A DNA stretch of 60,769 bases, filler included, from Hausera hauseri (taxonomy: Eukaryota): NCBI GenBank assembly GCA_046269625.1. It is 10 parts of 10 records of this genome, joined end to end, with 100 filler letters (N's around TTAATTAATTAA, not from the genome) between each part and the next. Parts side by side here need not be neighbours in the genome. Positions count along the whole stretch, not along the records: positions 7,970 to 20,647 come from JBJURY010017787.1; 9 more parts are not named here. One strand, written 5' to 3'. Below the pieces are notes generated by a model. The model was not told the origin of the DNA and did no database searches. It saw only the letters and a program-made list of their open reading frames with translations. A program made the position numbers and the translations under genes. Below are positions 4,690 through 60,769 of this stretch, piece after piece; position 1 is the stretch's first letter, and every line of letters starts with the position of its first letter.

Positions 4690-7600
4690 CAATACAAGGA
4701 CAGGTAACAAAATATGAAAGTAAGTCGTCAGTAAGGCTAGAAAAATTACAGTTAATTACGAGAGGTACTTGAGAATAGTAAGAAAAGGTACAACAGAAAG
4801 GAAGTAAAACCAATAAGGATAGAGAGGATGAAGGTAAGAAAGGCGAATTAAAGCAGCTGCATTTCGAGAACTAAAAGAGCAACAAATTTGTGAGAGAATT
4901 GAGAAAATGAATGATGAGAAAGTTCGATCATTGCTCCTATTGGTAGATGGGAAAAGACTCGTGCATCAGAATCGGATACAGGAAAGAAGAATGAAGGAAA
5001 AGGATAAACCTTTGATACAAGAAGAGGAATTGAAGACGCCGGAACGGAATTTATGTTCCAAAAGTGGAAGTGAAAACAGTGAGTGAAGTGGGGAAAGTGA
5101 ATGCAAAGGAAAAATCAGCAGTTACGAATGCCCGACTGTGAAATTAGATCAGAATGATACAGAAATAATTCGGAATTCAGCATCAGTTGAACCAACTACT
5201 CTGTTCGAGTCAACGAATTAATATTGGAAATATTCGGTTGAAGGCTCAAAAGGAAAAATTATTAATAAAAGAATGTTTGTGACTGGAACAATTGACAAGA
5301 CAGGATATAGTAAGGGTGCCATTGAGCATGGGTATGACTGAGAATCGCACCATAGTATGCTGAGCAAATCCCCGACATGGAATGAGATTTAAATTATAAA
5401 TTGATACCAGCAGATGTGACCATACAGTATTTCGATTAAATTATAAAGGGATATTATTCTTATCCACAGCAGAAATAACAAAAGCCAAAAGGAACATTGA
5501 TAAATCAGAGATGAAACCTCACCTTTATTTCCATACGAAAATTGATTTTATTTATGATTTCCAACAATAAAATATTGACGCAGTGTATCGAGATGTAATA
5601 TTAAATGATTGCAAATTGAATAGGGAGGTAATGAGAAATCGGATAGATTTGTCATCAATAACGGATGGAATGATAAAATATCCAGCCGAATCACCTCAAG
5701 CAGAGAGGAAGTTCGCTCGAACAATGGGTGAAACACTCAAATGAAGAGCAACAACTGACTGTACCATGGAGTTACCTATTTGGTACAAGGAAAAACCACG
5801 TTTATTGCAACCAATCACGCACATATTATCGGATCCGGCTGAAAAACCGTATTTACATCAAAATTGTACATACACTGTCGCCAGCATATCGATTAACCGA
5901 TAACTTATGGATAAGGATGCTGAAAAAGGTGCAGATTACTCCATATCGGCGGATTACTTTGATCAATTTGAAAACGGAACAAACATACAAACCATTAACA
6001 GATCTTGTAAAGATGGGCGTATATTCCGAACAAGATATGGGAAACCATAGACGGATGATGATGTTTCGTCAACACAGACAATGAAAGTGTTAGCTGACCA
6101 CACTGGGAAGGCTAACTGGGAAAATGTGATGGGATTGGACTATGGAAAGAAAATAGCTAAGGATATTCGCAACTGCATGGGGATGGTACATGTGGTTTGG
6201 TCAATTTAACTGTGGATGGCTAGGATTTTACTATATCTTTGCTTTTATAAAATCAATTGTGACCATGGTAACTGAGGGATGGGGTATTAAACAAGCTGCT
6301 GGATGCACGTGGAAAATTATTTATGCATTGATTCCATCCATAGCCAGTTGCTTTTTAATGAAAATGGGGATGGTGAATGGAAGCAGAAGCATATAAATAA
6401 GATTGAGGAGGATGACAATGATGAGGATAAACTTCAGCAGAAAAGGTAAATTCGAAAAATCCTAAATCAATAGAAAAAAATAAAGACATGGAGCCTGATT
6501 ACTGCTGGAAGTAAGAAACGGAGGACATTGTTATTTGATATCGCACAGATGAGGAAATGGAATGAGTATCCAATGGAACAGTCATATTTTATACCTACCA
6601 ATGAATATATGGGCATACATTGTTCAGGCGATATGGATTATTATGATGAGAAATGTGCAAAGCTGATGCTTTATCCATCAGCTGCAAAGGACGCTGCAAT
6701 AACCAGCATAGACGGGGGTAAGGTAATTTGGATAGATGGATATCCTATTGCAGCTATAATTGATACCGGAACATGGGCCTCAATGATTTTATGCAAACAA
6801 CTGCCGGAACAAGTAAAGAAGAAGTTACAGAAACCCACAGAAGACATTACAAATATTTTGAATACAAAATTTATACTTGATCAAATGCGACACAGAAGTC
6901 CTTAACCAGAAATTTAAAGAGGAATTTAGAATAGGTGACGAATTGCTGGCTGAAGCTATACTCGAATGCGATGCGTTAGCAAAATGAAAAGATGTGTGTA
7001 CATTTGGTGACTCAACAAATCCAGTCACACGGAAAAGCAAGGAACGAGAAAAAAGATAGTGGCAGCTACAGCGGAGATTGTGCTCAAAGCTGCAGTAGAA
7101 GGTCGAAACGAAGTAGATGATTATATTGAACCAAACTTAACTTTCATGGACAAGAATGTGCTGTGGTAGCTCATACAATTGATAACATTCGAGAACAATA
7201 AGTAATTGTTCGAATAGCCAATGCCTCTAGTAAACGTAAGTTGATTAGAAAAGAAACAAGAATTGCCTATGTATAGGTAATAAAGCGATGGAAGGCATTA
7301 TTTCAACTGTACAGGAGTTGTCTGAATTCATGGAAAGACAACGACATAAACTGCGAATAGAAGGCTATAATTACTATGGACGCTGCACACACAATGTGTT
7401 ATGTGAATGATGTTATAATCGGTTCAGCTGATTATAACCAGCATAAGGAATATCTCAAACATATGGTAGAGAGATGCACACTTTTAGCAATTGAAATAAG
7501 TTTTAAAAATGCTGACTTTATACGCCATACAGTAAGTAGGGACGGTATTAGTCCACAGATTGGAAAGATCAATAAAATTCAGGATTTTCCAGTCCCAAAG

Positions 7601-7869
7601 GCAGTTAGTGGAGTTCGAAAATTTCTTGGCCTTATTGTCAGCAAATAGCTTCTTCCCTACATTGGTTATTGCAAGCAAAGTGAGCTTATATGGGCACAGA
7701 AGGATAATTTACTGGCTCCACCGATATTAGCTTATGCAGATATGTTGAAACCATATTTTGTAGCTACGGATGCAAGTACGAATTGGAGTAGTTTTATCAC
7801 CAAAATATGAACAAGGACAGGAACATGCTATATCATTCGGAGGACGGAAGCTGAGAAAGCAGGAGAAAA
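4690..7869 (+). mobile_element. Heavily deleted Ty3/Gypsy element (env-before-pol type), apparently inserted in a Domino intron
   Basis: ~5000-5170 (KDKPLIQEEELKT..SGSE) resembles the 43477-43850 element. Then a glycoprotein remnant, protease IDGYPIAAIIDTG (~6730-6770), degenerate RT (CYVNDVII, VSGVRKFLGL) and RNase H (VATDAS ~7760). Left border approximate. Confidence 0.8.
5225..6396 (+). pseudogene. Chuvirus-like envelope glycoprotein remnant
   Basis: GKIINKRMFVTGTIDKTGYSKGA, GVYSEQDMGNHRRMMMF and the TM region WFGQFNCGWLGFYYIFAFIKSIV align by eye with the 10917-12764 glycoprotein; many frameshifts. Confidence 0.75.
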
Positions 7870-7969: not shown

Positions 7970-10270
7970 TTTTCAGTTGTCGTTTTTTGGTATTTTTTCG
8001 TTTTGCACGAACTCGATAATTTGCTGAATAACCGTGTCTTTAGCTTGTTCAGTTGTAATTCTAATTGTCTTATTCGATATTAGGATTCTTTGTCGTTCAA
8101 CTGGCTGTTCGAGTTGTAGTTTCTTTAGTGTGGTGATTGCACTCGTTTTTGTCTTTAACCTTGACAGTGCGTCGGCGTCGACGTGTTTATTACCAGTTTT
8201 GTATTGGAATTCAATGTTATATTGTGAGATTTCCTCGATCCAACGATTCAGTCTAAATGTTGGGTTAATAGCTCATCCTTTTAATGTCGTAACTGCTTTG
8301 TGGTCGGTTACTATTATAATCTTTTGTCCGTATACATAGACATTAAAATATCGTAGTGCTTCCTTTACGGCTAGCGTTTCTAATTCGGTAAGTGATTAAT
8401 TCTTTTCTGCTTTTTTAACGAGCGTCTATCATAGGCTATTGGATGTTCTAGTTCTTCCTCTTCTTGTTTCTGAGTTAGTTCGTATCCTATGCCTTCTTTA
8501 CTTGCATCTGTTTTAATGATGAATGGTAGATTAAAATCCTGATATCTTATGACTGGTCCGCTTGTCAAAATCGTCTTCATTTCATTGAATGCTTTTTGCT
8601 CCGCTTCTATCCATCTCCATTTAGTTCGTTTTTTGAGTTGACAATACACTGGTGCGTTAATTTTCGAATTGTCTGGTACGTAAGTGGCATAATACCCACA
8701 TAGGCCTAACCAATGCCTTAACTCTTTTTGGTTCTGCGGTTCCATACAATCGGATATTTTGTTTAGTAATGATTAATCTGGTTTAGATCCTCCTTCTTCG
8801 ACTATATGTCCGAGGTATAATACTGCGTTCTGTGCCCATTTACATTTCTTTAGATTTAGTTTTAATCCTGCTTGTTCCAATCGCATGAGTGTATCTTCAA
8901 TGTCCTTTAAGTGTTCTTCTTCTGTTTTTGATGCTGTCATCACGTCGTCTATGTAGGCGAATTCATGATCAAGTCCATAAATATTTTGTTCATCATTCGA
9001 ATAAAAATAGCTGGTCCTGTGGTGATGCCGAAAGGCATAACATTAAATTCGTATACGCCATCGTGTGTTTTGAACGCTGACTTATATCGATCCTCTTCTT
9101 CGATTTCCACTTGCCAGTATCCCGATTGTAAGTCGAGAGTGGTAAACAATTTCGCTCCAGATAGTCTATCTAATGCGTCTTTTACCGGTGATAATGAGAA
9201 CGAGTCCCTCATCATAAGCGTATTTAGCGCCCGATAATATATGCAAAATCGACGTTTCGTAGTTCCTTTCATTTTAACCATAAGTATAGGCGAGTACCAT
9301 GATCGATAGCTGGATCGAATTATGTCGGCCTTTAACATTCGCTCTACCTCCTTAGCTATTTCTGGTTTTAATGAATAAGAGGGTGGATACAATTTGGGCA
9401 TTTTTTGTTCTTCTAGATCGATTTCGTCATTTGAACTGGGTTTCTTCCTCAATGAAATTGTTAATCGTAGGGCCTTGACTCTACCGATGTATTCTTCATT
9501 TTGCGAGATTATCGATCAGTATTTACAGAGTAATTCATGAAATTTACAGTACGCCTCAGGAGAAAATTTGGTTTCAACGTGAGGTGGAAATTCTGCATAA
9601 TTGTATGGTTTTTCCTCTATCGTCACTGCCGATACTCTGCAAGTGTGACCCAAAATAGTGTTAACGTACAATCTTACGGGGATTGGTGCATTGTTGACTA
9701 GTCTTATAGGTATTCGTCCCGTTACTACGATACATAGAATATTGCTAAACGTAAGGTTGAGATCGATATTCCCTTGGGGCTCGAAGTATACTGGCAGATC
9801 CTCGTCCTGTCGAATATGTGCGAAAATTATCATTTCGGTTCTAGGCGGAATGTCTTCATCTACCGGAATCCATACTTCTCCCGATTTCCTTTCCTTTATT
9901 ACTTTTGTACCTTTTATTGGTTCAAGTTCACTTAATTTTCCGATATGCACATCAATCGCTATGCCTGGTATCTGCTTCAATATGTCACATCCTAGTACTA
10001 CATCGTCCGTTAATTGGTCCATTATCGCAAATTTGTGTTGAAGTGCTTGGTCCATCATATAGACAGTAGGAGTCCATTTAAATTTCGGCTTTGATACTTT
10101 TCCAAATGCTCCTACGCTACCTGGGTCTGATGATGCGGGTGGGCATAATTGGTCGCGTAATATAGTTGGTATTGATTCGTATTTCACAAATGACTTTTCC
10201 GATCCTGTGTCGATTAGGGCATATACTTCCCAATCTTCGATGTATATTTTAGCAAAGGGTCTTCCTTCTA
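7970..10270 (-). pseudogene. pol: aspartic protease, dUTPase-like spacer, reverse transcriptase, RNase H
   Basis: PFAKIYIEDWEVYALIDTGS (~10200-10260); WYSPILMVK, LDLQSGYWQV, YEFNVMPFG, AYIDD (~8945-8959); LRHWLGLCGYY, FIIKTDASKEGIG. Confidence 0.93.
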
Positions 10271-10916
10271 CTACCGTTCCAAAACAATTTGCTGCTATCT
10301 TCGACCGTTTTATAGTAGAGACTCTATGTCCGTTTATTGTGATTTCTGGCGATGAGATAATATCTTGCCTTAAATGTCTTAATTCTCCGTTCGGTTACAA
10401 GTCGTTAATTGTTATCTCAGTAACGCGACCGTCGATGAGCGGTTCCTGGGGTAGTGAACTCGAGATTGAACACAGTTTCGGGTTTTCCCAGATCGTTGAT
10501 TTTGATTCAATATAATGCGGTATCCTTTTTGAGTATAATATTCCGTGATCGTTTCCTATTAATCCTTGATTGGTGACATTCATTTTCCGTAGTATCCCAT
10601 ATTGTTTCGTCTTTTCATAAGGATCTTCATAGTCAATGGGTTTGCGGTAGATGTCGGACCTGTACGACACAACAGATTTTTGGTCACAGTCTTCATATAT
10701 TGGCGCAGTCGGTAACTGGCTGGGTATTGGTGTGTTTATCACCGAGTACATCCTATGTATCTTTATTCTGGAATTCCCTTCTCCTCCCTCAGGCTCGTCA
10801 TCGTCTGAATCATCCCTTCGTGTTATTGTTTTCTTGCTTTTACGTCTATACAGAATCGAGGGCCGCCTTCGTCGTTTGCGAGTATAATACCCAACGTGCC
10901 GTTCTTTGTCATTCTT

Positions 10917-12764
10917 TTAGCGATTTTCTTCATAGGACTTGAGCATTTTTCCGAAGGGCGTGATAATTTCAGTCAAAATTTTGCAGGAAAACCTTGTTAG
11001 TGTGAATATTTTGTAGGCGTTGATGATGGCTTGGATCACTTCTTTAATTAGCTGAACTAAAAAATAGATGGCTAAGAATCCCGATGCAGCTTGTCCAAAA
11101 ATTAGACATCTTCCCCAAATCTTATACAATATTTCTAAAGTTACTCCTTGATAGTGATTAGCACCAAGTAGCGATTCCCATTTTGCTTGGAAGCGGGTGT
11201 CATCCATAACCACTGACATGGACCGATTCAGTTTATAAGTTCTCTGTCGCGGAAATGCTAAGAATTGCCTAAAGGCTTCTATGTCCTTTGGCCTATAAAT
11301 TCCTTTATTGGCCGTGTCCTCGAACTTCTCTTCAGATAATCCTTTTATTAAATTTGTCCCAGTTAGTTTACTGGGAGTTTTAGCAGCGCCTGCATTTGGT
11401 AAACTTATCCAGTCGATTCCGATACGTCGAAACATAGGTTCGCCTAAGCTCGTTTTGCATGCTTTTAGTATTGTTGGTTCGGTTGAGTTTGCCAGTAATA
11501 CTCTGGTGAGTGGCATCGCTAGTCTCGGAATATTTTCATAGATGACCGGTAATTCTTGCATACATCTTTTCTCTTCTCCGTTAATCGGTACGTCTCTTTT
11601 CTCGCATTCGTAGGTTAATAGGACTTCCCCAGTAACTCGTCCGAAAACACTTTCTTTCATTGGTATAATTGATGATGCCACTTCTGGTTTGGCATAAATT
11701 AAGGCCAGTTTGGTTCTCATGACCTCAGTATCTAATCTGCAGTCATTTGTTATCATTTTATGATATAGCTCCGCTATTTCGGTTTGTCCTTTGTAATAAA
11801 CATAGTCGTCACGATTTTTGAGGTAATCTTCAATACGTATATCCTGCGTTTTCAAATCGTACGTTTTCATGTAAATATCGGTTTCCGCTAAAAAATGCTT
11901 CGTAGTTTGTGGAATACATAACTACATCGCAACATGTTAACATATCCTTTCTAATAAACTTCAATCCGTGTGCGTCCAATATCAATATCGTCGGTATGGG
12001 ATGTTCTATAACATCTTCCCGCAATCTAGTATTTGTGTGTAATTTATTTGTATAACGTTTTCCGGTTGTCTCATTAAACTTTAACTCTTTGATTTTGATG
12101 AAATTGCAATCTCTCTTAGAAGGTGGCTCCATACCTCGACTGAACTTCGAAATGTGCAAGCACCATCATGAATGTGACACTTTGGATTCTTGGTGAATAG
12201 TTTGGTAACACTATAAAACATTGCTTTCAATAATCTCAACTCGGTTTCGTAAAAATCTACGACTGATATTCCTCCTTCCTTTCCTTTTCCGGTGTCATAT
12301 TCTGCTCCAACACAATAACCGGTGTGCATATTTAGTTTTCCGACTGTCACTTTGTAGGCTGTAATGATTTTGACTTCTTGGGCTTCTAACTCCATGCCGT
12401 CCCAAACCATTTTGCCGGTTAGCTGGGCTCCTAAACAGTGTTGTCTATCCACGTTCATGGGGATTAATGGTGTGGTTGGTTTGATAACTGAAGAATGTCC
12501 ATGCATATTGCTACAATGAAAAACGCTGCGGGATCTCCGTATCATGCATTCGGACGCATCCATTGCGATTAATTCACGCTGTTGATATAATATATACCTT
12601 TTTTCTCTTCTTTCGAGCTTATGAGGTCTCACATCTTCGCATTTTTATTAGTTCATTAGAGAATATTTCTGACCCACCTTAAATTTATCACAGTCGTATA
12701 TGGTAACTGTCCCTAACTGCTTTACTAACATCATTATCGTCAGCAAGTTGATTAACAAACTGGA
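10917..12764 (-). pseudogene. Chuvirus (Jingchuvirales)-like envelope glycoprotein (env)
   Basis: Hydrophobic leader LLINLLTIMMLV, then YDC..YSL, CMIRRSRSVFHCSNMHGHSSV, GEVLLTYEC, CMQELPV, PLTRVL, PMF..W, GIY, and C-terminal TM WGRCLIFGQAASGFLAIYFLVQLIK. Broken into 3-4 ORFs. Confidence 0.82.
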
Positions 12765-15700
12765 TTCGTTTCCTTTATTCGGAGAGATATTTCGTATCAC
12801 GTCTTCTAAGTTATTAGTTCCTTTTATCTTGTCCTCTTTTTCAAATAATTTAGTCCATTTTATTTCTTTGGGTACCCTTTTCGCTGCTTTTCTAGCTAAC
12901 AGGATTGTCTTGACAAATTCATTTTCCCGGAGTGGGTTAGTTCTTACTGCTAAATATATCAAGACTTTCCTTAATTCTTCCATCGTATTGTCTGTCATAA
13001 TTCTGTCGATTACCATTTCGTCAGAGAAGGTACTTTTCGATAATTTAAATCGTGGAGTCTTCATTGTCCGGGCTATATTATATATTAACCTTTCCTTCTC
13101 GGATAATATGTCGCCTTGAAGTCCAGTGAAATTGACTATCCTAATTAAATCTTTTATTAGCTCAATTAGTTCTTCGTTATCTAAACTCGCGGTCGGTACT
13201 GATAGTTGTCTCAACTCCTTAATTAGGTCTGCATTATAATCAATTTCTTTTAATTTTCTCGGTCTTCCGACCGGTTGTTTCGGTTTCATCGGAGGTAAGG
13301 TTTCACTTAGAGGAACTAAATTTTTATCGTATTGCGGATTGCAGTTATCAGTCTGTAGATATTCGAAACACATTGCGGAGTCTTGAATCCCCATAATTTT
13401 TCCACATAATGCTCTGTATGTGCCTTTCTCATGGCTTCATTTTTGGTTTGCTCACTAACTATTATTGCTATTATTCGATTTTCTTCTAGCGGTATAATCC
13501 CTACGTCTACTAAGGATTCTGGCTCGTCTAATATCCTACTCCTGAAACAGAGTCGGTAATTGACCCCTTCTCTACCCTCCTTATCCATTATTCGTTGTTT
13601 TGTATCCGCAACGGTGGTGCAGGTAGTGCATGTAAATTCTTCATCGTCCATTCCTTCAGATGGTACCTTTACTTTAATCTCCGCTTCTGCTTTGTTTTTC
13701 AATATTTTAGAGTATTCTCTTATCAGAAGCTTGGGTACTGCGCTGTATGCGGTGTTTTCACTGAACAGCTTGGTCAAAGTTGAAACCAATTTCCTTAATC
13801 TATATTCATTTATGTTTATTTTCAACACACTGCTCAATTCCCTTTCGGCTATTGTGGAATCAAGTATCATTTGTACGTCAAATTGTGTTTTCTGGCTACC
13901 AATAGGTAACTCATAAATTTGTATTGTAGTTCTCTGACTCTGCTCAGTCAAACCTTGGAGATATTCATCCCACTCGGTATTATTATCTGCGTCAGGTAAC
14001 TCGTAGTTCACTAATGCCGCGTGTCCAACCGGGACTCTTTCGCGTAATTCTCTTAACTGTGGTTGAAAGGTTTTCATAATGGATACCCTAAATCCATCTC
14101 CATTTCCGCACGCTTGCTGTATCAAGGTTATTAATTGGCACATTTCTTCCGGTTGTATCAGAGCTTTTTCCTGATAATTGGTCACTTCCGCAATTTTGTC
14201 TCTGCCATTTTCGTGTAAACTCCGTTTTGTCATTAATTTAAGATTTCATAAGGGAATACTTCATCTTATAAACTTCTGTCTTTCTCAGTAATTCGTTTAA
14301 TTCGCGTTGTATTTTCTCGGAGCGTAACCTGGTTTCTTTTACCAGACGTATCCGATTTATTAGTTTTTCGCTACTACCTCGACAATTTCTGCCATCTCTG
14401 TCAATAATAGGAATAATTTGTGCGTTTCATTTTATACTTCGGCGTCCGGATCTACTGCATCCATTAGCCTGCTTATGAACTTAGCTTCAATGCTCGTCAA
14501 CTGAGGATCATTTGTAATTTTTGTTAGTTCAGTATGGCAATGTATGTCAAAGCCTGGTGTCCATTCTGCTGGATTCTGTAAACATTGTAGTGTTTGTGCC
14601 AGATCAATCCGGTGATCATTGCATATTTCTAATGTTTCTATTTCCTGTGCTGAGATTTCTTTCAATGGTTTCTGCATTAGGTTCTGGATCCCTTCTCAAC
14701 GAATGTTCGCTAATTCTCGCTGAAAATCATTTAGTTTGTTTCTTTTTCGGTAAAATTCCTTCTCTTCTACCATACTATATATCCCTGCCAGTGTTGTTTG
14801 CTCTTAATCCTTACTCATAAATTCAAGTCCTCGGAGTGATTTAAATTTAATTCGTAACTTCGCTTCATCTTTCATCGTACCGATATCTAGTAACATTTCC
14901 TCCAATTGGTGCCTCATTATAGGTTTACTCAGAGCGAATTCTGTTAATCGTTCGTTTGTTACTTCTGCTATGGAAGGTAACAAGTCTGCCCACTTCCTTA
15001 ATTGTTTAGATATTGATGGTGTCGCGTAGATTATTTCGTCTAATGTCCTCAAAGCTTTTTTAGTTCATGATCTGGCCCTCGTACAAATTCTATAATATGT
15101 TTCATGTAGTTGAACTCTTCTTTATACTCGTCTAATTTGAGAAGACAAGAAAGTGTTATTCTCTGTACTTCTAGCTTTTCAGAGTGAATTACACTAATCC
15201 TTAAGTCGTTGATTTTGGTTCGTATTTCATTTTCCCTTTTAATGCGTATTTCCAAATCTAGATATTGTCGAGGATTATCCTTTGTCAGGCTGCACATTGC
15301 TATTAAAGAGGGAATATCAATTGGGTCTATACCCAATATTTATAGGTCAGCATTAGTCAGTTCATATACTGGCTTGTTGTGAAGACAAGGATTTATCGTG
15401 TCTTCGATCTCATGTATCAATCCTTCTAAATTACGTCTTGGGCGTTTCAGTTTTGGGTTGCCTTTTAGCGCGTTTAACAGCCCTTGCGCTTAATTAACCT
15501 GATCGAAGAACGTCTCGTTTCTATTCCTTCATACTTTCGTAAAATCAATTCCTCTCTTCGTCCACCATTTTAATTTCTTCTGCCAACATTCTATCAAGTC
15601 TTGGGATGTTTCTTGGAGTTCGCCAGTTGTGGTTTCTTCCCCTTTCGGAAAGCCGATTTTAAGCTTTTTATACAGCTTCTCTATGAATTGTTGTTCTTTT

Positions 15701-16432
15701 CCGGAAATGTCCAACTGTTTGCTCATCTGCTGGAGTTTTTGTAAGCTCTCCTGTAGCCTTTCGAGATAATACAGTACGTCTCTAATTTTGGTTAGTTCGT
15801 TAGCATTTTTCCAAGACTTTCTAATTTTCCAAATTTTATAGATTTTTCCTCTTCCGATTCCTCTTCACTAAGTGGTAACGGACATATTTCATTAATCTCA
15901 TTGATATTTGAAATATCTGTTGTTTCCAAAACGTTTTGAGTTATAACAGGAGTATTTAGCTCTGCTTCATTTCTTAAAGTGATGATGAAACCTTCCTCCT
16001 TGTCTACATACTTTTAATAGGGAATCGCGAACGAGTTCCTGACCTTCTCCTAAGAGAAGGGCTTCTACCTCTATTCTTTGTTATCTTAAGTATTATTGGT
16101 CCAATAAATTCACTCTCAACCTTGTCTGTTGTTTTATCCTTAATTTGAGACGCTAATTCGGTATCTGCGTCCAAGTCTATACTTGAACACGTAATCGGCT
16201 TTTCTTCTTCCTCCTCTTTCGTCGCTTGATTTAGATTTTTTTTCCTGGCCATGTTAGTATTCTTAGGTGCTATGACTTTTTCGTACTCCGTTTTTGGTTC
16301 TCTTAATCCATGATAAACTTCCATTTGGTGCAGCTTTTCCTCGTACTCCTTCCTAGCCTGGATTACTTGTAGATTATTAGATTCGCCCATATTTCTCAGA
16401 TACCTCCCTAAGTCCTGCATCTCAATAATCAT
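12765..16432 (-). pseudogene. ~3.6 kb accessory coding region between gag and env: helical/coiled-coil region, ubiquitin-like domain (13454-13681), AT-hook (13254-13274)
   Basis: Chain of same-strand ORFs; TVADTKQRIMDKEGREGVNYRLCFRSRILDEPESLVDVGI; PVGRPRK; 5' part conserved with 58914-60769. Confidence 0.75.
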
Positions 16433-16499
16433 ACTTATATCACCTCGTTTTCCATAAATTACTTCTAAGTTATTCTTGATTGTGCTAACTTTACTAGTT

Positions 16500-17560
16500 T
16501 CTGCAAACGATATGCTTCGTGGGTTAGAGCATGATCTAGCTATATGTTCTTTCTTACTTCATGAATAACAAATCAGATTCCCGTCTCGGCCGATCCTTTG
16601 TCGTCCGTCTTCATTTACTGGTGATTTGGGTCTGCCTATTGTTTTGTTTTGAGCTTGTTTATCGATCTCACTATTTCTATTTTCAAAACTCCGATTTTCT
16701 ATATATTGATTTTTATTGCTTCGGTCATTATTTTGATTTCTGTCCAAATCATAACCTGTTTTGCCATAAGGATTATACATATTCCGATTATCATTCCTAT
16801 TATCATATCTCGTACTGCAATTAGGGATATTTTGAGCTCTATTCTCAAAGCCTCGGTCCTTATTATTGTCGTTTAATCTTCTATTGTTTCGGTTCCTATC
16901 CCGATTATCGCAATCATTATTTAGGTCATACCTATCACTCTGTTTAGCGTATCTATCTAATGCCATTTCTAAGTTCTGAGCTAGTTGTAGTGCCGTCTTG
17001 AAATTGTCTGGTCGAGCTAAAATTAGTTGCTTAACTAAAACTCTGGTCCATATACCGTTTATTAATTGCGCTGTCATCATGACATCTAAATTCGGTAGGC
17101 TAGCCTTTTCTGCCACTTCACGTTCCACTTCTGTCTTTGCCTTCGCCGCATTAGCTATCCTTAGCGTACTCACGTAACTATTAGCAAGTTTCTTTAGTGC
17201 GAATGCGAATTGAGTAACCGACTCACTTTTTTGTTGCGTTCTATTCTGAAAGGTCATAAGCTTCTTTTGTGGCGTCACCGTTGGCAATAGTTTACGATTT
17301 AGGGCTCCTACTACAGAGGACCATGATTTCTCCTCATTGTTAGTAAGTTCACTATAGGCGTCTGCAACCAAATTTTTCAAGTATAATGACAGTCATTTAA
17401 TCATAACCTCGGGCGCAAGACTGGCTCCTTCTGCGTGTAATTTATAAGTTCTTAAAAAGTCACTTAGTCCGTCCGGGTCATTATCATATGCCGGTAGGTT
17501 CAAAAAATCGAACGTAAATATATCAAGTTTTTGAGCTACTGCTGGGTTTTCTGCTTCCAT
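16500..17560 (-). pseudogene. gag (retrotransposon gag domain, N/D/R-rich linker, degenerate CCHC knuckle)
   Basis: ATG at 17560; one in-frame TGA; RTQQKSESVTQFAFALKKL major-homology-like region; LICYS..HIARSC. Confidence 0.85.
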
Positions 17561-17920
17561 CTTTCTATCGTTCGGTTTGTCTACTTTAATTCTGGGAGGA
17601 GCTTTGAATTCTTTAACGGAGGTTAGTTCAGTGTCAGATAAACAGTGCTTATCGAATATTTTGTCTTCTATATAAAGTTTATTTCGAGTTTCTCTTTGAT
17701 TACGTTTTTCTATACCTTTTATTAATAAATTCTGATATGAGTTAACTCTATCAATATTTGCTCTCAGTTTAATTTTTACTTAATTTCCCTCTAACCACTT
17801 ATAATCCCAAGTTTAAACTCTTTACTAATAACGTATAACAATTATTTTATGTGAATGGCGCTATTCGCCTGTATGTCTTTAATTGACTCTCAAAAGTAAT
17901 GTCTAGCGAGGCACAAAATG

Positions 17921-17937
17921 TCCTGCTAGGGTCGCCA
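17921..17937 (-). promoter_or_regulatory. Primer-binding site TGGCGACCCTAGCAGGA
   Basis: Lies 2 nt after the LTR end ...GTAACA; identical PBS at 57599-57615; cognate tRNA not certain (Arg/Ser-like 3' end). Confidence 0.88.
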
Positions 17938-17939
17938 AA

Positions 17940-18719
17940 TGTTACAGTTGGGGTGGCCCTTACCGTCTCCCACTATAACAATGTTTTAACTCAATTTAAT
18001 TGCTGTATCAGCAGGTTAGGACTATTCGTTCTCGAATAGTCTGCTTGTGCCTTAAGATTTTAAGTGAGATTAAACTGTAATGCTGGTACTGCCCGCAATA
18101 ACGATGTATGTCTCAAATTATAATCTCTGGTCTTAACTATATATTTTAAGTAGATTTTGAATCCTAGGGGAGTCAAATCGTCTTTAAGAGACGATGCGAA
18201 ACTACATGAGGATTTTAGAACAGCAAAACAAATAATCACTTTTATTGTTTTTATAGAATAACAACTAACTTTAATCAATCACAAGATAGTCAATGTCCAA
18301 TAAGAATAAATTAGTTATAGCTTGAACGACTCTAAAGTCGTCAATGAACTTCTCTCTTCTGTCGTGTTATGACCTACTTACATAGCAGCAAGGTTTTCAA
18401 TACCATATTGATTTACAATTAACTGCAATTCTTTGTTTATACAACAATTACTTACAAATAAAAATTCAATTTTCTTATGTTTTAGGTTTGTATACTTTTC
18501 TTCAATAATTTATTTTGTTCAAAATTGTCAACTTCTCTAATTGAATAATATTTACAATAGTTTCGCATTAAATTTCTTGTTGGTAATTTCCTCACAATTC
18601 GAAATGTTATGTCAATTTTCTCACAACTTATTGTCCTCTTTAATTACTAAATATGTCCATCAGAATTGTTCTGAAGTGAACTGATCAAAAGAACATTTTC
18701 GGACTTATTAAGAGTAACA
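17940..18719 (-). repeat. 5' LTR (~780 bp, TG...CA)
   Basis: 3' end fixed by the PBS; 5' end inferred from TGTTAC at 18719. Confidence 0.65.
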
Positions 18720-19026: not shown

Positions 19027-19824
19027 TGTCATAGACAGGGTATCGAAAGAAGAAATGTGAGAGAATGTATAGAATGTAAGTGATTGAAATAGAAAATTTA
19101 GAAAATTTATATCGATAAATTATTATAATCAGAATTGGAAATTTATACAAATTGACCTCAAATAATACTGCTCAACAATTAGCGCCTACAGTAATGGCCT
19201 GAAATTGAAATCACTCCGGAATTTACTGTCAAAATTGGAAAACAAACTAATTTAAATCAAATAAATCAAAAATAAATACAATACGAGATTCGTTCGAACA
19301 CCCACGAACCAAGAATGATATAAATACCAGTACGAAAAGTTAAGAATCGAACAGTGCTGAGATTAGTATCAAAATGAACCGAGACAAAATTGATTCAAGA
19401 CTACTGTGGCGAATTGAACTCAGTCATAGAGTCACATTCGTTGCAGTATTTTCAGACGATTATTCTGACCGAATGATTATTTCAGAGGTAGCAAACATGT
19501 GCAGTATTTTAGACTTATTGACGCTGTACGTCGGATAAGTATTCTCTTGTTCTGTTAATAAATAGTTTTCTTTTTAAATTTTCATAGTTTACACTGCCCC
19601 TTAAGAGAGGTTTGAGTAACATTAGGATTAATATCTTACTCAAAATATTTAGATAAGTCGATAATTCATTAACCTGTGCACAGGACCGCACGCAATACAC
19701 GCAAGTTAATTTTCTAGGCAATCGATTAAACGAGAACGTCAATCCCTTCCTACTATTAAATCTTTTAACAGTTTAAGTTATTGTTATAGTTCGGGTGTTG
19801 ATTAGGGTCCACCAAAACATAAAC
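19027..19824 (+). repeat. Probable solo LTR of a related family
   Basis: Shares CACGCA.TACACGCA and TGTTATAGTT.GGTGTTG..TAGGG.CCACC with the LTR at 49655-50410; borders uncertain, no clear TSD. Confidence 0.5.
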
Positions 19825-19909
19825 CCAAGTAGGTAGAACTGTAATCTCCACCGCACTCTTCTAATTGGTCCGCCAACCACTTTTCCCTACCTGATTGGCT
19901 ATTCAGATC

Positions 19910-20647
19910 AGTAGAAGGAAGGGAGCGCACTGGGCCACCCCCCCCCGAGGATTGGAAATCAATATTCAATAATCAATTTTTTAAATTTTTGAATTTTTAA
20001 ATTTTCAAATTTTTTTCAAACTGCACTATTGATTTTTCGAAAGTGGACTATTAATTTTTCGAAAGTGTGCAGCACTATTCGGTGCAAATTTCGAAAATTT
20101 TCCTAAAAATGAAAAATGTGTATTTTTGAATTCTGCATACAATGGTATTGTTCGAAAAAATTTTTCGAAAAAACTTTTTTCGAAATCGAATATCTTTACA
20201 CCGAGTTTTTGAATAATTTTGTTTGGAAAGACAAAAATGTTTAGTTAGTAGTGTAAAAATGGCGGTTCGGTCCCACACCCACCAGGGGGCGGTAATTGAT
20301 AAATCGATTTTGAACATGTACCGATCGATAGTGCACAGTGTGCCTAGCAACGGTGCCGATAGGTACCGTTGCTAAGGGCACTTTCGCACTTTTCACAAAT
20401 TTATCGCTTCACAGTGCCATATTGATCGAATCGATCTGCACTTTGTTCTAGTCGATAGCGCACATGGGTGCACATCGATTGGTGCAATTGCAAGTGTGCA
20501 AAAATCAATAATATTGGATATTTGAAAAATCAAAAACCGATAATTAGCACTCGGGACCGGGTGCAATCGATACTGCACTTGATGTTGTATGTGAATGTGC
20601 AGTTAGAATTTAAATCGATTGATTGGTTTTCGAATAATTCGCAAGTG
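19910..20647 (+). repeat. AGTAG-starting dispersed repeat, possible Polinton-like terminal region
   Basis: ~19910-20230 matches 32528-32830; ~20415-20635 matches the reverse complement of 51925-52170. Confidence 0.75.
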
Positions 20648-20747: not shown

Positions 20748-23700
20748 GATGTGCAAGGGAAGTGGTAAAGTGGTGGTTTGAGGTGTTTGTGGACCTTGTA
20801 TTGCTGGCATGCTGCACATCCCTTGACCCAGATCTGTACATCTGTACGCATAATTGGCCATACAACGTGGCCTGCAGTAGACGAAATGTGGCTTTGAACC
20901 CGGGTGATAAAGAGAGTGAAAATAAGTGAAAGCTGTCTTTTGTAACGATGGGGCAAGAATGATTTTCTTGTTGGTCGAGTTGAAAGTGTCATAGGCGATG
21001 CCATCAATGATTTCAACAGATTCAAACGCTTGGAGAATATCAGATGATGGCTAATAACACCTCAGGATTTCAGATGAAAAGATTGGCTAAACTGTAATTG
21101 AGTTGACCGACCGCGAAAGAAAGTCTGCTACTAGATTTTCGGTGCCTGTGATATATTTCATGGAAAAACTAAATGTCGAAAGGTATGATATTTGTCGTTC
21201 TTGTCTGAGTGATGGCTGTTTTAACGTCATTATGTGAAGTAGAGGCTTATGGTCGGTTTGGATGGTAAATTGACGTGAAAAAGCAAATGCTTGAAATGCT
21301 TCACCGCTAGAATTACAACCAAGAGTTCACGATCGAATGTTGAGTATCGGCTTTTTGGTTGCATGAGCTTTCGGGAATAGAATTCTAATGGTTCATCGAC
21401 GCCATTTGATGTAATATCGCACCAGTTGCTGTGGTTGAGGCATTGGTAATTAATATTAGTTCGGCGTTTGGTTTTGGAAAGGCCAAGATTTTCACAGTTT
21501 TTAGACTTTCACGAAGGCGATCAAATTGGTTTACTAGATCGAGAATCGAATGGATTAATTGTCTTTTCTTCTCAGATGAGAGGTGTGCGAAAAGTGCCGT
21601 TAGTTCGGAGCAGTGTGGCACATATTTATGTACGAAGTGCAATGTACCTAGAAAACTCCTCAAATCGGTAGTAGTACTTGGTAGCGTCACATTTTTTAAT
21701 TGTTGTAAGCGATCAGGCTGGAGCGAATGACCTTCGGGAGTAATTATGTGGCCTAAGAAGTTTACGCATTTCTGGAAGAAATTGCATTTGGTGAAATTAA
21801 TTTGCAGGTTACTTTGATGCAATCTGTAGAAAATAATTCTAAGATGCTCATGATGTTGTTTTATGGAGCTGGAAGCGACTAATATGTCATCTATGTATGG
21901 GTAAGAAAAATTAAGACCAGAAAGAACGGTGTCAATGTGGCGCTGGAAGGTCTGAGATGCACTACGTAGGCCGACAGGCATGAAGATGTATTCATAAAGA
22001 CCAAATGGTGTGATGAGAGCAGTTTTCGTAATGTCATTAGGGCAACAGGAATTTGATGGCAGGCTTTGTGCAGATCAATAGCAGAATAGGTATTGGTGTT
22101 GTTGAGGCTATGAAGAATATCTTTAATGAGTGGTAATGGATTGGCGTCGGTAATAGTCAGGTTGTTTAATTGACGATAGTCACCACATGGCCTATAGGTA
22201 CCATCTTTTTTACCACTGCATGAAGAGGAGAAGCCCAACGCAAATTCGATCTCCGAATGATGCCAGACCTTTCCAGTTGATTAAACTCCTGTTCCACAGC
22301 TTTACATCTGCGTGGCGACAAAGGTCTGACTTTTTGTTTGATCAGCCTCTGATGCTCTGTTACTATGTGATGATAAGTTGTGGATGGAGGCTTGAAGTTG
22401 ACGTCCCTTTTAACTGTGCGAAAGCAAGACGTTGTGACGTATGATTTAATATCGGAGTCTAGAGACAAAAATGAATGAGGCATGTCATTAGAGAGAACGG
22501 CTCCATTGATTGACGAAAAGCAACTGGCATCGCTACTGTCGACGCCTAATTTGGATTTTTGTTTTAGAATGGATTTATGATTGTCGCTCATAATTGAAAT
22601 ATTGCCGACTTTATCGAAAGTTTTTTTATAGATGACGAAGCGCTCAACATGTTAATAGGTGAGTGCAGTGAATTGCTCGCTAAGTTGTCTACGAGACACA
22701 TGTTTGGAGTCGCAATTGAGTTCCTGCTTAAAAGACAGCTGTATTTGCAACTGACTAAAAGATCATGTGCAGCCAGAAAACCTGAGCCTATTATGGGAGA
22801 TTTAATGTTAGCCACGTGGAACTTCCAGACAAACTTATCTGGCAAGTTGGCGAATGTAAAAATCAGATCCGTGGTTCCTGCAATATGCAACGGTTGACCA
22901 CTAGCAGTGAGAAGCGGTGGACAGGAAATCATAGTCGATGTAGGAACGAAGGACAACGGAAGGAGTGAAAAGGGCAGCTCCTGAATCTATAAGAAAGTCG
23001 ATATGTGAAGTATCACTTCATAACAGTGCAACTTTCAACAGAAAGACTGCAGAGGCGGTGTTGAAGCTGCCAGAAGATTGAGTGATATTGTCTGCGCCAG
23101 AATGTGCCGTAAAATCTGGCGGCATTATTAGTTTTTTTGAAGGTTTTGGAGAAAAGGAAGAAGAGAAAGAAAAGCCAGGAGATTTATCGTTGTAATGTTT
23201 ACAACCAGGCACGCTTGATATAGCCTGTGACTGGAACTTGTGGTAGACACAAATAGGGCTGTCCACAGCGTACCGTTTGCTGTAGAACCGACAACCCAAA
23301 AAGCACTTCCTAGCATTCCTTTAAAATAGCGTGTGATAGAAGCAAGTCATGCGTCCGCCAGGTGAAATGGATCGAGAAGAGTATCTGGAAATGCTTCTCT
23401 CCCATGAAGGTCTGTTTTCACTTCGTCGAGGTACATAAAGATTATTTAGTTGGGTAGTAATCGCCGAAATTGACTTCTGTAAGTCGTCAAACTGTTGCTG
23501 CATCATTTGCTATTGTTCAGTAAAAATGTGGTGTCTGTAGTTGGAGCACATCTGGTTGCAGCCGTAATAGGGAGAGAACTTTTGGTATGAAGAATCTCAA
23601 AGGATTTGTCAGCCATTATTGCCAGTTTTTCGATGGCAGTGGACTCATCTACAACGGTGAGTAAGGCTCTGATTGAGGCGGGCAAGGTCAATAAGAAATA

Positions 23701-24200
23701 ACGGCAAATTAAATCCGCGTTATTCGTAGGTGTCACTCCTAGCGCGCAAAGCTGCAGAATGGCTATTTGGAGAAAGTCGGATGGCTTTTGGTTCCTTATC
23801 GCGTGGTCATTAAAATACTTTTGTATTACGTTGTCAATCAAAGGATCCGTGACATGCAGTACAGCTTCACAGAGTGTCTCGTAAGGTGTCGAGGATTGCA
23901 GCAGCTCAAAGATATTTTTAATCTGCTGCTTGACGTTGGCAGGCAGAAGAATTAAGAGGCTATTGGCTCACATAAAAGAGTCAGTGATGTTGTTGGATTT
24001 TAGCCACTGTTGGTGAAATTGGAGCCATGGTTTGCTGGAGTTGATTTATCAAGGAAAAATTCCACACAAGGCAAATTTAACGAAACTCGACCTTGCTGGG
24101 AGTGTGACAAACGACAGATGTTGCCTGTATTCGTAAATTTATCATCCGAGCAAAATGGATTTGGGTCCGATCCATCCCGAAGGCGAAAATGGAGCATAAG
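20748..24200 (-). mobile_element. Decayed Ty3/Gypsy element, CsRn1/Kabuki-like (gag-PR-RT-RH-INT start)
   Basis: CHCC-type gag knuckles (CFYH.., CVYH..), FLIDSGA protease (~22985), WASPLHAV, YRPCGDYRQLN, YPYIDDIL, RNase H, integrase Zn finger (WVKGCAACQQYK). Confidence 0.85.
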
Positions 24201-24868
24201 ATGGATGACTGGACGTTCACGGCAGACAAAAGACAGGAGTGAGTTGACGGGATGTACAGTGATACTTCATTGTGTGAAATAGAAGTTGGCAATGTCGAAT
24301 GAGGAGGATAAAGAGATGTATAGTAGCTGCGCCGTGGCATTGAGTGGAGCATTAATGGTCGTTATGTGTTGATTGTAATTGAAGACAAGGAAGGAGAGTT
24401 GCAGCGAAGCAATTCCAGGAGAATGGTAAAATCCAAAAGGAGTTTGTGCGATTTGCTTCCGTGTTAACAAGAGATATGGGCGTGCAGCCAGGATAACGGT
24501 AGCAAGTGATGATTGGGGTAAAGGAGTATCCAAAGATATTAAGCTGAAAAACCTTTTAAAGTGAAAAATGGTGTGAGCTATGAAGGATTTGTAAATGTGC
24601 AGAACAAGTCCGCACCGGTGGGCGCAAACCAGTAAAAAGAATTTCACCCACCTATGTTTGAATATCTGAGTCCTGGATGTCGAATTTGGCCACATCTGAA
24701 GTGTTTTCCCAAGTGGATCATCCTTGTTGATCAAATGGACGCCGGTCTCGTCGACACCTCTTGAATGTTGATTTTTTTTTTGTTAAATAGATTGTTACCG
24801 AGAGGCTTTGAGAGGATATTGTAAAGAATCGTGACGAATTTGGAGCCCGCTGACTGAATCTCGCTACT

Positions 24869-25295
24869 CTAGACATGGAAAATACTGACAGTGAAGTAAC
24901 CGCCTTTCGCCATGTCCCTCTTCAACAGTGGTCGAATGATTTCATGATTCGTTTTTTTATGATCGTAATCGAGTTTTGACACGAGTGCGCAGAAATTCTT
25001 ATCGGGAATATTGTGGGCAGATATTAGTTTCCACAGAAAGCACTGCTTGATGGCACCCCAATCCAAACTGTGGGCCAGCACGTCGACAGCACTTCTGGCG
25101 TCGAACAATTCGATGTCTGTCTTTTCAATCTCGAAACCTGACAGACAAATTTTCATTGCATCGATTGACGAAATGCTCAGACGAGCAAAGGTCAGGTTTC
25201 CGATTGGTTCTGTTCGGAAAACTCGATAGAGGCCTGGCAACAGATAAACCATAAGTTTAATGTCGTCTTGATTGAGCACCTCTGAGTCTTTAAAC
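24869..25295 (-). pseudogene. INTS3: Integrator complex subunit 3 fragment
   Basis: LLPGLY..F, VLAHSLDWGAIKQCFLWKLISAHNIP, FTVSIF resemble INTS3 (SLDWETFEQYCAWQLFLAHNIP); internal deletion. Confidence 0.72.
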
Positions 25296-26230: not shown

Positions 26231-26239
26231 TAATTGGCC

Positions 26240-56806: not shown

Positions 56807-57081
56807 CAATATAATTTTTCATCGTCCCTTAAGGACGATTTGCACTACACTAAGGGTAAAATCTTACTTAAATTCTGTAGCTAGGTTGAGAGAATCTAAC
56901 TTAAGACACGCAGTTTTATTGCACGCAGTACCGGAATCAAAAATTAATTTCTTTTTTATAAACCTTAAGGCACAATCAGATTATTCGAGAACGAGTAATC
57001 CTAACCTACTCATAGAGCGAATCTAAATTGGAATTAATATTGTTATAGTGGGAGAATGTAAGGGCCACCCTAACTATAACA
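56807..57081 (+). repeat. 3' part of an LTR with no PBS following
   Basis: Ends TGTTATAGTGGGAGA..TAAGGGCCACCCTAACTATAACA, nearly the same as the 17940 LTR end. Confidence 0.75.
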
Positions 57082-57083
57082 AC

Positions 57084-57596
57084 TGTATATAAATGTCAAT
57101 AATGCTAATAAAACGAGAATCAAGTTCAATAATAAAGCTCATGGAAAACTATATATACCCAAGAAAAACTGGTCCAAGTCAGAACAGCATTTCAGAGTAA
57201 ACGAAGGAGAATAAACCGGAATTTTTCAACTTGCAAAGAGAGACTAACATTAATTGATTCCTGTTTTATTCGAGTGACGAATCTGTATACGTTGTGTTAT
57301 TAAAGGGTATATTTGATTTCGTTGTTTTTAAATTCCATATAGTTTTCCCATCGCATCTTAAAAGCGATTTGACGACTTTAGGAGTAAAATATTTACTTAA
57401 ACTACATAGTTAAGAGGAGAAATTGGTAACGTGACGCAAGCACCTACATTCAGTACACGCAAGAGTTCTAAAGAAATTAACTATAAGTAAAGCACAAACA
57501 GTCTATTCCATAATGATGGACCGTACCTGCATAAAAATCGATTTAAACATTGTTATATAGAGGTAGATTGCGTAAAGGCCACCCCAATATATAACA
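57084..57596 (+). repeat. 5' LTR of a paralogous giant Gypsy copy
   Basis: Ends ATAACA before the PBS; 5' border uncertain. Confidence 0.65.
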
Positions 57597-57598
57597 TT

Positions 57599-57615
57599 TG
57601 GCGACCCTAGCAGGA
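57599..57615 (+). promoter_or_regulatory. Primer-binding site TGGCGACCCTAGCAGGA
   Basis: Identical to 17921-17937. Confidence 0.88.
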
Positions 57616-57919
57616 CATTTTGTACCTCGTTAGACTTTACTGTTGAGAGATAAATAAATACATACCGGTGAACAACGCCATTGACACCGAGTAATTTGAT
57701 ATAGCTGTAACTGAAAATTAAATAGGGTATATAGGCTATCAAACAGGGGATAAATAAACGATCAAATTTGAGAACAAATATTGATAAATCAAAAGCAAAC
57801 GTTCAAATTGGGAAAATAGAATCGAGTTAGACGTCATCGAGCAAAACGAGCAATTTAAAATCCCATTTGAGAAAAACCAAATCAATAAAGCAAACTTAGG
57901 GATAATTTACGCAACTAAT

Positions 57920-60769
57920 ATGGCAACGGATAACCCACCAGTAGCGCAGAAACCGGACATATTTACTTTTGATTCTCTGAATCTGCCGGCATATGTCGGT
58001 GACCCGGACGGACTTAATGAATTTTTGAGAACTTATAAATTGCATGCAGGTGCTAGCCTTGCTCTGAAGTGATAATTAATCGCTTGTCGTTGTATTTGAA
58101 AAATTTAGCCGCCGAGGCTTATAGCGAACTCACAAATGATGAAAAGAAATCTTGGTCATCCCTGGTAAAAGCATTAAACCGTAAATTACTACCGACGGTA
58201 ACACCACAGCAGAAGCTTTTGGCATTTCAGAATAGAGTACAACAAAAGGGTGAATCAGTAACCCAGTTCACATTCGCGTTGAAGAAGCTTTCTAACAGTT
58301 ATATAAACACACTGAGGATAGCCAATGTAGCTAGAGCCAAAACAGATGCGGAACGCGACGCCGCAGAAAACGCAACACCGCCAGACCTAGACGTTACGAT
58401 GACGACTCAATTAATTCATGGTATTTGGTCCCGAGATTTAGTTAAACAATTGATTTTGGCTAGACCTGGGAATTTTGAAGGAACTTTACAACTAGCCCAA
58501 GATTGGGAAATGGCACTCGACAGATATGTCAGACATAAAGATAGAAATAATGATCGATATGACCGTAATGATCAAAATTGGAATGACAGTCGTGGAAGAG
58601 ATGATAGACGATTTAATGGAAATAGAAATTATGATAATAGAAATAGTAACAACGATTACCGAAATAGTCAAAACAATAGTTATGTTAACGACCGAAATAT
58701 AAATAAGACAAATTTAACCCCGAATAGAATTCGAGGAAATTACAAAGGTCCTAACTATTCAAATCGCAATAATGATAATCGGAATAATAATAACCGAAGA
58801 AATACAGATAATGCTCAAAGTTTGCCGAACCAGTATAATAGAAGTATAAATAGACCTAAGTCACCTGTGAACGAAGACGGTCGACAAAGAGTCGGCAGAA
58901 ATGGAAATTTGGTTTGTTTCACTTCGGAGAAGAAGGACATATTCCAAGGTTATGTCCAAACTCACGTAGCGTTTCATTTACTGAGCCTAATAAGACTAGT
59001 ATGATTAAAGTTAACGAAAATTTAGAAGCAAAGTATGGTGTCCGTGGAGACACAGGTACTATTATTGATATACAAGACTTGCGAAAATTTCTAAATGTTC
59101 AGCCTGAGACTACTAACCCACAAATTCTAATTGCCAGAAAAGAATATGGGGACAAGCTGAGACTACTAGAAGTATATCATGGTTTAGCAAAACCAGAAAC
59201 TGACTATAAGCATGCGATAGCACTCAAGCGAATGGATATGACACGGAAAAAGAATGTTCCGATAAGTAATAAAATATCTGATAAACCAAAAACCTCGACA
59301 GAAGTCGACTTAGATGCACAGCCTAAGTTCATGGCTGAAAAAGTAGATAAATCTACCGATGACGATACAGCAGAAAAAAATTCATGGAGCCATTAATACT
59401 TAAAATGACGAAAAATAGAGGTCGTAGCCCTTCTTTAGAAACGATACGTAGAAGTCGTTCGCGTTTGCATATAACTGGAGAGAAAATAGAAGAAACAGAA
59501 AATACGAACATAGCTGTAGATAGCGACGTAGAGTCTAGCTTAAATACACCAGAAATCGGTCTATTCGTACCTACAGAGGTAAAAGAATCTACAGAGTCAA
59601 TTAACGAAGTTAACGAGATTTGCCCAGTTCCCACTAATGAGGAAGAAACGGTAAATATTGCTGATTTTGATTCAAGGAGATGGAAAGTTCGACGTTCGTG
59701 AAAAAACGCAGATGAGTTAAAGAAAATGAGAAATAAATGTCACAATTTAGAAATACTACAGCAAAATTTAGAAAGGCTTAAGCAGATTTGCGAGCAAGTA
59801 GATATATCCGGAAAAGAGCAACAGTTTGCTGAGAAGTTATATAAAAGTTTGAAATTATGCAGTGAAGGAAAACTTGACGAAGCGATCGACTTAGGACAAC
59901 CTGAAGAGGTATCCCCTGAAACATTGTTAAAATGGGAGCATGAATTAGAATCATGGATTAAAAGTGGAGTCGAATTTTCGGAAGGATGGAGCAAAAATGA
60001 AGATATTGTTGACGTGAAAGTCACTAAAGCTCAGACGTTATTGTCTACCTTGGAAACAAACCCATAATAAAGCGCATAATAAATGAAATTTGTTGTGCAA
60101 TGATTAATCGGCTTAGAGAAAAACCGGTTAGTAATCGAAGTAATATCGATTTAGAAATACTGGGTGTAGACCCAGTGGATAGTCCTCCCCTTATGTAGGT
60201 GATAAAAATTGCTTTTACCGTACCTAAACAATATACAAATTTTGAGAACCAAATCAAAACCGAAAATGAAAAGCGAGCACAGATTTATAGCTTGAGAAAC
60301 CGAATTATGTTCCCGAACCATGAGGATACCAAATACGTAGTAAAAGCTTGCCTCATAGAACTTGACGAGTACAAGGACGAGTTCGGGTACATCAGCCGGG
60401 TTATGAACTTTATTAAGGGCCCAGATGACAAATTAAAGGACGCATATAAAATGCTAGACGAGGCTATTATGGCAAAGCCAATAATCGCCAATCAATTGTC
60501 GGAATGGTCCGAATTAGTAACGCGACTAAGTAAATTAGTAGAAAACTGTAGGAAAGAATTTCCAGAGAGTGAGCCTCTATAAAGAAACAGTTAGAAGAAA
60601 GTGCATGTAATTTAGACACAATAAAGGCGGAAATAGACGTTCGAATTCAATTCAAAGCATTACAACGACTAAATTTTATGAAGAAGAAACAAGAAGCAAC
60701 GATATTAGAAGATATCTATAAAATGGTCAAAGAGACGAATTTTACAGCAAAGAGAAATATGACTTGCAA
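57920..60769 (+). mobile_element. gag + accessory region of a paralog of the 7970-18719 element (cut by the window end)
   Basis: Collinear matches: ALNRKLLPTVTPQ, RPKSPVNEDGRQR, EVYHGL, KNRGRSPSL, DISGKEQQF.EKLYK, LDEYK.EF. Confidence 0.9.

Follow-up and report, generated by a model that had tools for sequence, protein, structure and literature searches.

Hausera hauseri, an animal, carries a retroelement in which the envelope gene (env) is placed between gag and pol. The window analysed here, 60,769 nucleotides from assembly GCA_046269625.1, consists of 10 contigs with N spacers between them, and the element lies wholly inside the contig at 7970-20647 (JBJURY010017787.1), on its minus strand. 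It is very probably a Ty3/gypsy element present in many copies, of which this one has decayed. Its likely place is among the Burro-like elements with env before pol, and its proteins were likely synthesized as a single long polyprotein. The layout is a published one, of which the element is a new, decayed and divergent example.

Along this one contig and strand are found, in order, a long terminal repeat (LTR), a primer-binding site (PBS), gag, extra coding DNA, a glycoprotein gene (G), protease (PR), reverse transcriptase (RT) and RNase H (RH). The first-pass annotation of this DNA had proposed this order, and Pfam matches, a capsid profile and the ends of the LTR and PBS confirm it. The word "giant" in that annotation overstates the case. 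Here, 10.75 kb of the element is present; the contig edge at 7970 comes before the integrase (IN) and the 3' LTR, and the complete element would be about 13 kb long. The accessory coding sequence, which it had put at about 3.6 kb, is indeed there, and measures about 3.7 kb (16500-12755).

Envelope, gag and pol

The glycoprotein is recognized by PF24664 (Monjiviricetes fusion), which matches 12081-12644 (E 6e-11) and 10917-11921 (E 7e-39) and, with stops read as X, spans profile positions 6 (about 12752) to 622 of 653. These matches uphold the family proposed for it, that of the chuviruses and other Monjiviricetes. Hydropathy places an internal signal-like stretch at 12755-12705 and a membrane anchor at about 11105-11055, with the predicted chuvirus/gB-type ectodomain between them, as in published GAG-ENV-POL elements. 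Because the PF24664 match sits between the capsid-profile match and PR, env does lie between gag and pol. Searches of G against PDB sequences gave no match, and searches of viral contigs gave no relative of it.

Gag has no Pfam match. A capsid profile derived from three relatives does find it, at 16562-17392 (E 1.7e-7; 689 six-frame open reading frames, ORFs, were searched), and a zinc-knuckle pattern interrupted by a stop can be read from the sequence near 16570-16520. Upstream, the LTR has TG...CA ends and is followed by a tRNA PBS, as is expected of Ty3/gypsy; the 5' LTR alone is within the contig. The first 8 nt of the PBS are complementary to the tRNA-Arg(UCG/UCU) 3' end given in the supplement of PMC13524379. 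The 5' end of the LTR may lie at 18719, where the inverted end is a perfect 6 nt, or at about 18445, since the LTR of a second copy aligns only that far and the depth of related contigs drops to flank level above about 18545.

The pol part has the PR-RT-RH order and the gypsy-type RT and RNase H of a Ty3/gypsy element. The best PDB matches of the RT are to Ty3 RT (E 2e-28), far above HIV, in a list that holds no BEL RT. The RT is 43-54% identical to that of env-before-pol relatives, in which integrase follows RNase H. The spacer between PR and RT is matched by a profile of relatives (E 1.2e-9) and sits where Burro has a dUTPase-like domain; no dUTPase match to it was found in Pfam or PDB. A metagenome scan with the RT returned 10 loci at 40-49% identity, none matching the gag, accessory or G pieces.

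Table 1. Features of the element and its second copy, in window coordinates
Feature	Position	Strand	Remark
5' LTR	17940..18719	-	TGTTAC at 18719, GTAACA ending 17940; 3' end firm
Primer-binding site, likely tRNA-Arg	17920..17937	-	begins 2 nt past LTR
gag (capsid, N/R-rich linker, zinc knuckle), stop-broken	16500..17560	-	capsid profile of relatives
Charged, likely helical accessory block, about 880 codons, broken	13850..16500	-	no Pfam match above cutoff
Three-helix and ubiquitin-fold module	13466..13840	-	common to related polyproteins
GRPRK motif, then helical segment	12760..13280	-	where relatives carry Bcl-2-like domain
env, chuvirus/Monjiviricetes-type (gB-like, class III), broken	10870..12755	-	PF24664, hydropathy
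Basic/acidic tail and linker	10398..10870	-	in frame with env and PR; no family match
Aspartic protease and conserved spacer	9519..10394	-	PF00077, E 6e-5
Ty3/gypsy reverse transcriptase, broken	8776..9515	-	PF00078, E 2e-17 and 1e-10
Connection and RNase H	7970..8772	-	PF17919, E 2e-19; PF17917
Second, diverged copy: LTR ends, PBS, gag, start of accessory block	56807..60769	+	64-76% DNA identity

Reading frame and copies

By manual count, the main copy has at least a dozen stops in frame and about eight frame changes. Judged by its sequence, this copy is dead, and protein production from it is impossible. It lacks the intact ORFs of the GAG-ENV-POL errantiviruses, which is, of course, a statement about the copy and not about the family. 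From 13436 to 8952, a single frame runs through the end of the accessory region, most of env, the tail, PR and RT, interrupted by isolated stops and one shifted stretch. From the last piece of env through the tail, PR and RT, only isolated stops interrupt that frame, so that env is in frame with pol, as it is in Burro. The stop that closes env is absent from most related contigs (12 contigs; 299 of 305 in depth). One polyprotein is therefore the likely product of the family, given the shared frame, the mostly unshared stop and relatives that are unbroken. A is evenly abundant on the coding strand across gag, the accessory region, env and pol (A 0.35-0.43 per 500-nt bin).

The second copy, on another contig of the window, has LTR ends that match those of the main copy at 72-76% and a PBS placed alike, and its collinear protein matches reach main-copy position 14740. 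Between the two copies gag is 55-78% identical, with nonsynonymous differences (pN) well below synonymous ones (pS). Sequencing run X1 adds 37,739 contigs that fall on the stretch, most of them 80-95% alike, with all 30 bins covered. Their summed depth, which is no copy number, ranges from 1,690 to 42,349 for inner bins, while the flank has 10-57. Contigs from other copies bridge the accessory region and env (12447-12717) and the tail and PR (10291-10519). Thus the unit is replicated as such, as had been supposed, in the second window copy and in related contigs over the whole span.

On the contig of the second copy, at 56807-57597 (+), two LTR 3' ends of this family stand in tandem. They have diverged from one another, and the PBS follows the latter of them; this may record an insertion beside a related LTR. 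In the flank of the main copy, 19814-20647 is a repeat of very high depth that is present also in contigs 4 and 9.

Probable further members of the group appear elsewhere in the window. In contig 1, at 5250-7869 (+), is a separate element of env, PR, RT and RH whose decay is far more advanced (PF24664 E 3e-8 and 6e-13), directly 3' of the exons of an intron-bearing SNF2-type host gene; its G is 24% identical to that of the main element. Contig 7 has at 42511-44900 (-) a capsid, a zinc knuckle and a GRP motif, and the contig edge comes before the expected env. A ubiquitin-like stretch is seen there by eye (profile E 0.35), and the Bcl-2-like profile of relatives matches (E 9e-5). This piece is likely a third member of the group, to go by these sequence features.

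The glycoprotein and its relatives

Word-based searches for homologs of the largest G piece came up empty, whether at near or at longer lengths, weak blanks that were overturned by a full HMMER search with G, which returned 404 proteins at E<=0.001. Of these 404, 150 were listed, and 19 of the 150, picked by rank or length, were scanned for domains. Ten of the 19 have a protease after G in one chain, and five of those ten also have RT. The other nine are G alone (five), Pol parts before G (two), a protein with DUF5641 (one) and a protein with immunoglobulin domains before G (one). A protease follows G in the same protein in 7 of the 9 best G matches and in 3 of the 5 cluster members scanned; the cluster members P0271, P0274 and P0278 are unbroken G-PR-RT-RH-IN chains.

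Among the matches listed, the closest G proteins are those of env-before-pol polyproteins (E 1e-53 to 1e-42, 31-35% identity). Named chuvirus G proteins match more weakly (E 1.5e-17 and 1.8e-17). A FastTree tree of G took in 57 rows out of 142 usable ones, namely the window, every one of the 16 polyprotein rows and, of the remainder, the 40 best. Here, the window falls, with 96% local support, in a set of 21 rows that contains all 16 polyprotein rows; both named chuvirus proteins and the DUF5641-linked protein fall outside it. Since the closest glycoproteins are those of env-before-pol polyproteins, and since the named chuviruses lie outside their group, the env sequence was likely inherited within the env-before-pol group rather than freshly captured.

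Between env and RT, the relatives P0121, P0123, P0125 and P0271 have protease-like domains in numbers from two to four or more, and several have a long C-terminal extension past the integrase; P0271 also has ankyrin and C2H2 matches. P0122 (HBK71150.1) is an env-pol polyprotein annotated as a hypothetical protein of a Flavobacteriaceae metagenome-assembled genome, and is likely animal DNA that was assigned to the bacterial bin.

The accessory region

For some 880 codons past the zinc knuckle, the Pfam scan found no match to any family. Over 16546-14909, where the second copy can be compared, the block is 35-61% identical, with pN of 0.23-0.40 against pS of 0.56-0.76. As pN is below pS, the first half of the accessory region is, on this comparison of two sequences, under purifying selection.

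The second part holds a module that, according to profiles and a structural model, combines a helical part with a ubiquitin fold. A profile made from four relatives, chosen by eye and without the window sequence, finds it with E 2.4e-7 among the 689 ORFs, the next ORF having E 0.35; the score of 26.1 bits compares with a best of 14.4 among 500 shuffles. The five-row alignment of the module has PDB matches in ISG15 and ubiquilin (E 5e-5). The model (pLDDT 77) has three helices and a beta-grasp, and Foldseek places it with ubiquitin, ISG15 and SUMO folds (E 2.5e-4). A single-sequence fold of 13319-14245 reached a pLDDT of only 36.

Between this module and env lies a GRPRK motif, found also in 4 of 13 relatives, which we take to be AT-hook-like. 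The helical segment after it stands where relatives P0121, P0126, P0135 and P0278 have a Bcl-2-like segment directly before env. Direct support for Bcl-2 in those relatives is weak: P0126 gives Pfam E 1e-3, below the cutoff, and Bcl-xL E 0.01. A four-row profile found no Bcl-2 in PDB. An origin of the accessory region from captured viral N, P or M genes was considered and rejected, there being no such Pfam match.

Published elements of this layout

The first-pass annotation had held the lineage to be possibly undescribed. This claim of novelty fails, because Burro and GAG-ENV-POL gypsy elements have already been described. According to PMC6431247 (Arkhipova and Yushenova, 2019), which cites Grohme 2018 and Jurka 2007, the planarian Burro/GYPSM1 elements, giant and gypsy-like, encode in a single frame Gag, ubiquitin-like, BCL2, mononegavirus-type Env and Pol. 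Gypsy GAG-ENV-POL elements with a gB-type env are reported from Nematoda, Bryozoa and Platyhelminthes (Chary and Hayashi, 2026, PMC13524379). In the supplement of that paper, 14 of 30 nematode, bryozoan and flatworm rows have LTR coordinates, spanning 8.9-13.5 kb; the filter described there dropped LTR pairs more than 14 kb apart. In arthropods, gypsy fragments are reported near such glycoproteins, with no clear capture (Dezordi, 2023, PMC10084718). The accessible text of PMC10309623 has nothing on a gag-env-pol layout.

The likeness to Burro, as PMC6431247 presents it, is in layout and cargo. Gag is followed by accessory cargo that includes a ubiquitin/SUMO-like domain, and a mononegavirus-type env stands in frame between gag and pol, followed by PR, spacer, RT and RH. 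A candidate Bcl-2-like domain, placed just before env, is carried by relatives and by another contig of the window. Like the "ancient errantiviruses" of PMC13524379, the element has a Ty3/gypsy POL with a gB/chuvirus-type env before it, and its estimated size is within or near their LTR-to-LTR span. Those elements are listed there as intact, whereas the main copy has decayed and includes a long accessory block; the main text of that paper does not contain the words "Burro", "ubiquitin" or "Bcl". Nematode endogenous retroviruses (Sacco et al., 2022, as cited in PMC13524379) are reported to be metaviruses with an RNA-virus glycoprotein gene before pol. The Anakin elements (Dezordi, 2020; Dezordi, 2023, PMC10084718) also have a glycoprotein of this family on an LTR retroelement. 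Their backbone is that of BEL/Pao, whereas the element described here is gypsy, with env ahead of pol.

Alternative explanations

The first-pass annotation had itself raised the danger of a nested insertion confined to one copy. Here, the accessory region and env would have entered one copy by insertion, or have been joined to it by faulty assembly, and it is in keeping with this that none of the X1 contigs listed covers the whole stretch. The main contig, however, has no inner repeat and no inner LTR, its A-rich strand bias continues evenly across gag, the accessory region, env and pol, and in the second copy gag runs into the accessory region. Contigs from other copies bridge both junctions and cover the span, the depth of the inner bins is far over that of the flank, and contig 1 offers another env-then-pol element. 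This makes nesting or a chimera highly improbable. It is also unlikely, if less so, that the same element expressed gag, the accessory region and env-pol as separate ORFs by frameshifting or splicing. The path from gag to the accessory region is frame-shifted in both window copies, and relatives P0123, P0271, P0274 and P0278 start after gag; P0125, P0128, P0132, P0135 and P0142, by contrast, are unbroken from gag-like sequence into G, and ORF1 of Burro is one frame (PMC6431247).

Two further alternatives concern ancestry. Capture of a chuvirus-type G is documented for BEL/Pao elements (PMC10084718), so an element of the Anakin type might be suspected, and the first-pass annotation had decided against this. 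It was right to do so: the RT and RNase H are of gypsy-type families, 18 ORFs have no BEL-specific Pfam family, and Ty3 is the best PDB match of the RT. The sole hit with DUF5641, which we take to be a BEL-type domain, lies outside the G group of the window, and a BEL/Pao identity is hardly credible. That annotation had also proposed that this lineage captured a chuvirus fusogen independently, and this has fared less well. G is distant from everything (35-37% identity at best), the word-based searches were empty, and the named chuvirus proteins do match; by POL, GAG-ENV-POL elements are non-monophyletic, as PMC13524379 reports. Against such a capture, the nearest G proteins score far higher than those of the chuviruses and are parts of env-before-pol polyproteins, with which the window G groups in the tree, apart from the two named chuviruses, and the ubiquitin-like module upstream of G is shared. 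We regard a separate capture as improbable.

Some observations weigh against the reading preferred here, that of a Burro-like element expressed as one polyprotein. The frame link from gag to the accessory region crosses several shifts, so that a single ORF from gag onward is only inferred. Run X1 is not independent and could be the source sample. A tree of the RT (17 rows, without labelled references) left the window unplaced, with no support. The G tree is midpoint-rooted, with long branches and the 57 rows mentioned, and inheritance of env within the group is thus supported, not proven. Compared with Burro as given in PMC6431247, the element is estimated at about 13 kb rather than more than 30 kb, below a size of more than 20 kb, and one zinc knuckle is seen rather than two or three. 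The Pfam scan found no MATH, BIR or ankyrin domain, and the pre-env segment of the main copy gives no significant match to the Bcl-2-like profile (E 1.2; hhalign E 0.09). The kinship with Burro would thus be one of layout and cargo only. On account of its size, of the MATH, BIR and ankyrin domains not found, of the non-significant Bcl-2 comparison and of a kinship by layout and cargo only, the element is not filed as Burro.

Proposed expression and function

An intact member of the family would be transcribed from its LTR and translated into a polyprotein, of which Gag and the accessory domains (Gag-X) would arise in the cytosol. Env would then be routed by its internal signal into the endoplasmic reticulum, and the anchor would return the tail and Pol to the cytosol. 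The chain would be cut by signal peptidase and by the protease of the element, and tRNA-Arg would serve as the primer for reverse transcription. Spread from cell to cell would be by enveloped particles through class III fusion, a mechanism established for this Env protein family according to PMC13524379. The ubiquitin and cell-death pathways of the host would likely be the targets of the ubiquitin-like part and, in relatives, of the Bcl-2-like part, by analogy with Burro, for whose ubiquitin-like and BCL2 cargo a role against host defence has been put forward in PMC6431247, as a proposal and not as a result.

Other sequences in the window

A fragment of glycogen branching enzyme, used to place the host, is 68-75% identical to most of the matches listed, with no difference among insects, flatworms and a nematode, and falls on a long branch that joins no phylum. 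It is one of several decayed and seemingly intronless pieces that run together at 21000-27301 (-), the others being of an ABC transporter and Ints3. On the same strand they are followed by an A-run, beyond which lies gag-like and RT sequence, and they may be captured mRNA fragments.

An ORF at 45919-46722 (-) has, by eye, the look of a DEDD-type exonuclease, with no Pfam support, and resembles in pattern a stretch of relative P0135. ORFs at 40357-41659 (-) and 28621-29727 (+) resemble type B DNA polymerases, the former with a weak match to PF03175, and a long inverted match joins 28808-30560 to 53508-55242. These are possibly Polinton-like elements.

Implications

A wider picture can be offered, tentatively, as possible rather than probable. 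Here, the Burro-like proviruses, instead of being peculiar to planarians, may form an old and wide group of enveloped gypsy elements, each with a single polyprotein and a conserved cassette before env (helical and ubiquitin-like, AT-hook-like, Bcl-2-like) that modulates the host. Hausera hauseri, of a lineage poorly represented in databases, may carry up to three deeply diverged families of them, one with a conserved accessory protein of about 880 residues that belongs to no known family.

The element links two papers, in that the cargo of Burro (ubiquitin-like, BCL2) recurs in metagenome polyproteins and in this animal, while the main text of the survey in PMC13524379 is silent on it. Should the host belong to none of the flatworms, nematodes and bryozoans, the layout would have a wider host range.

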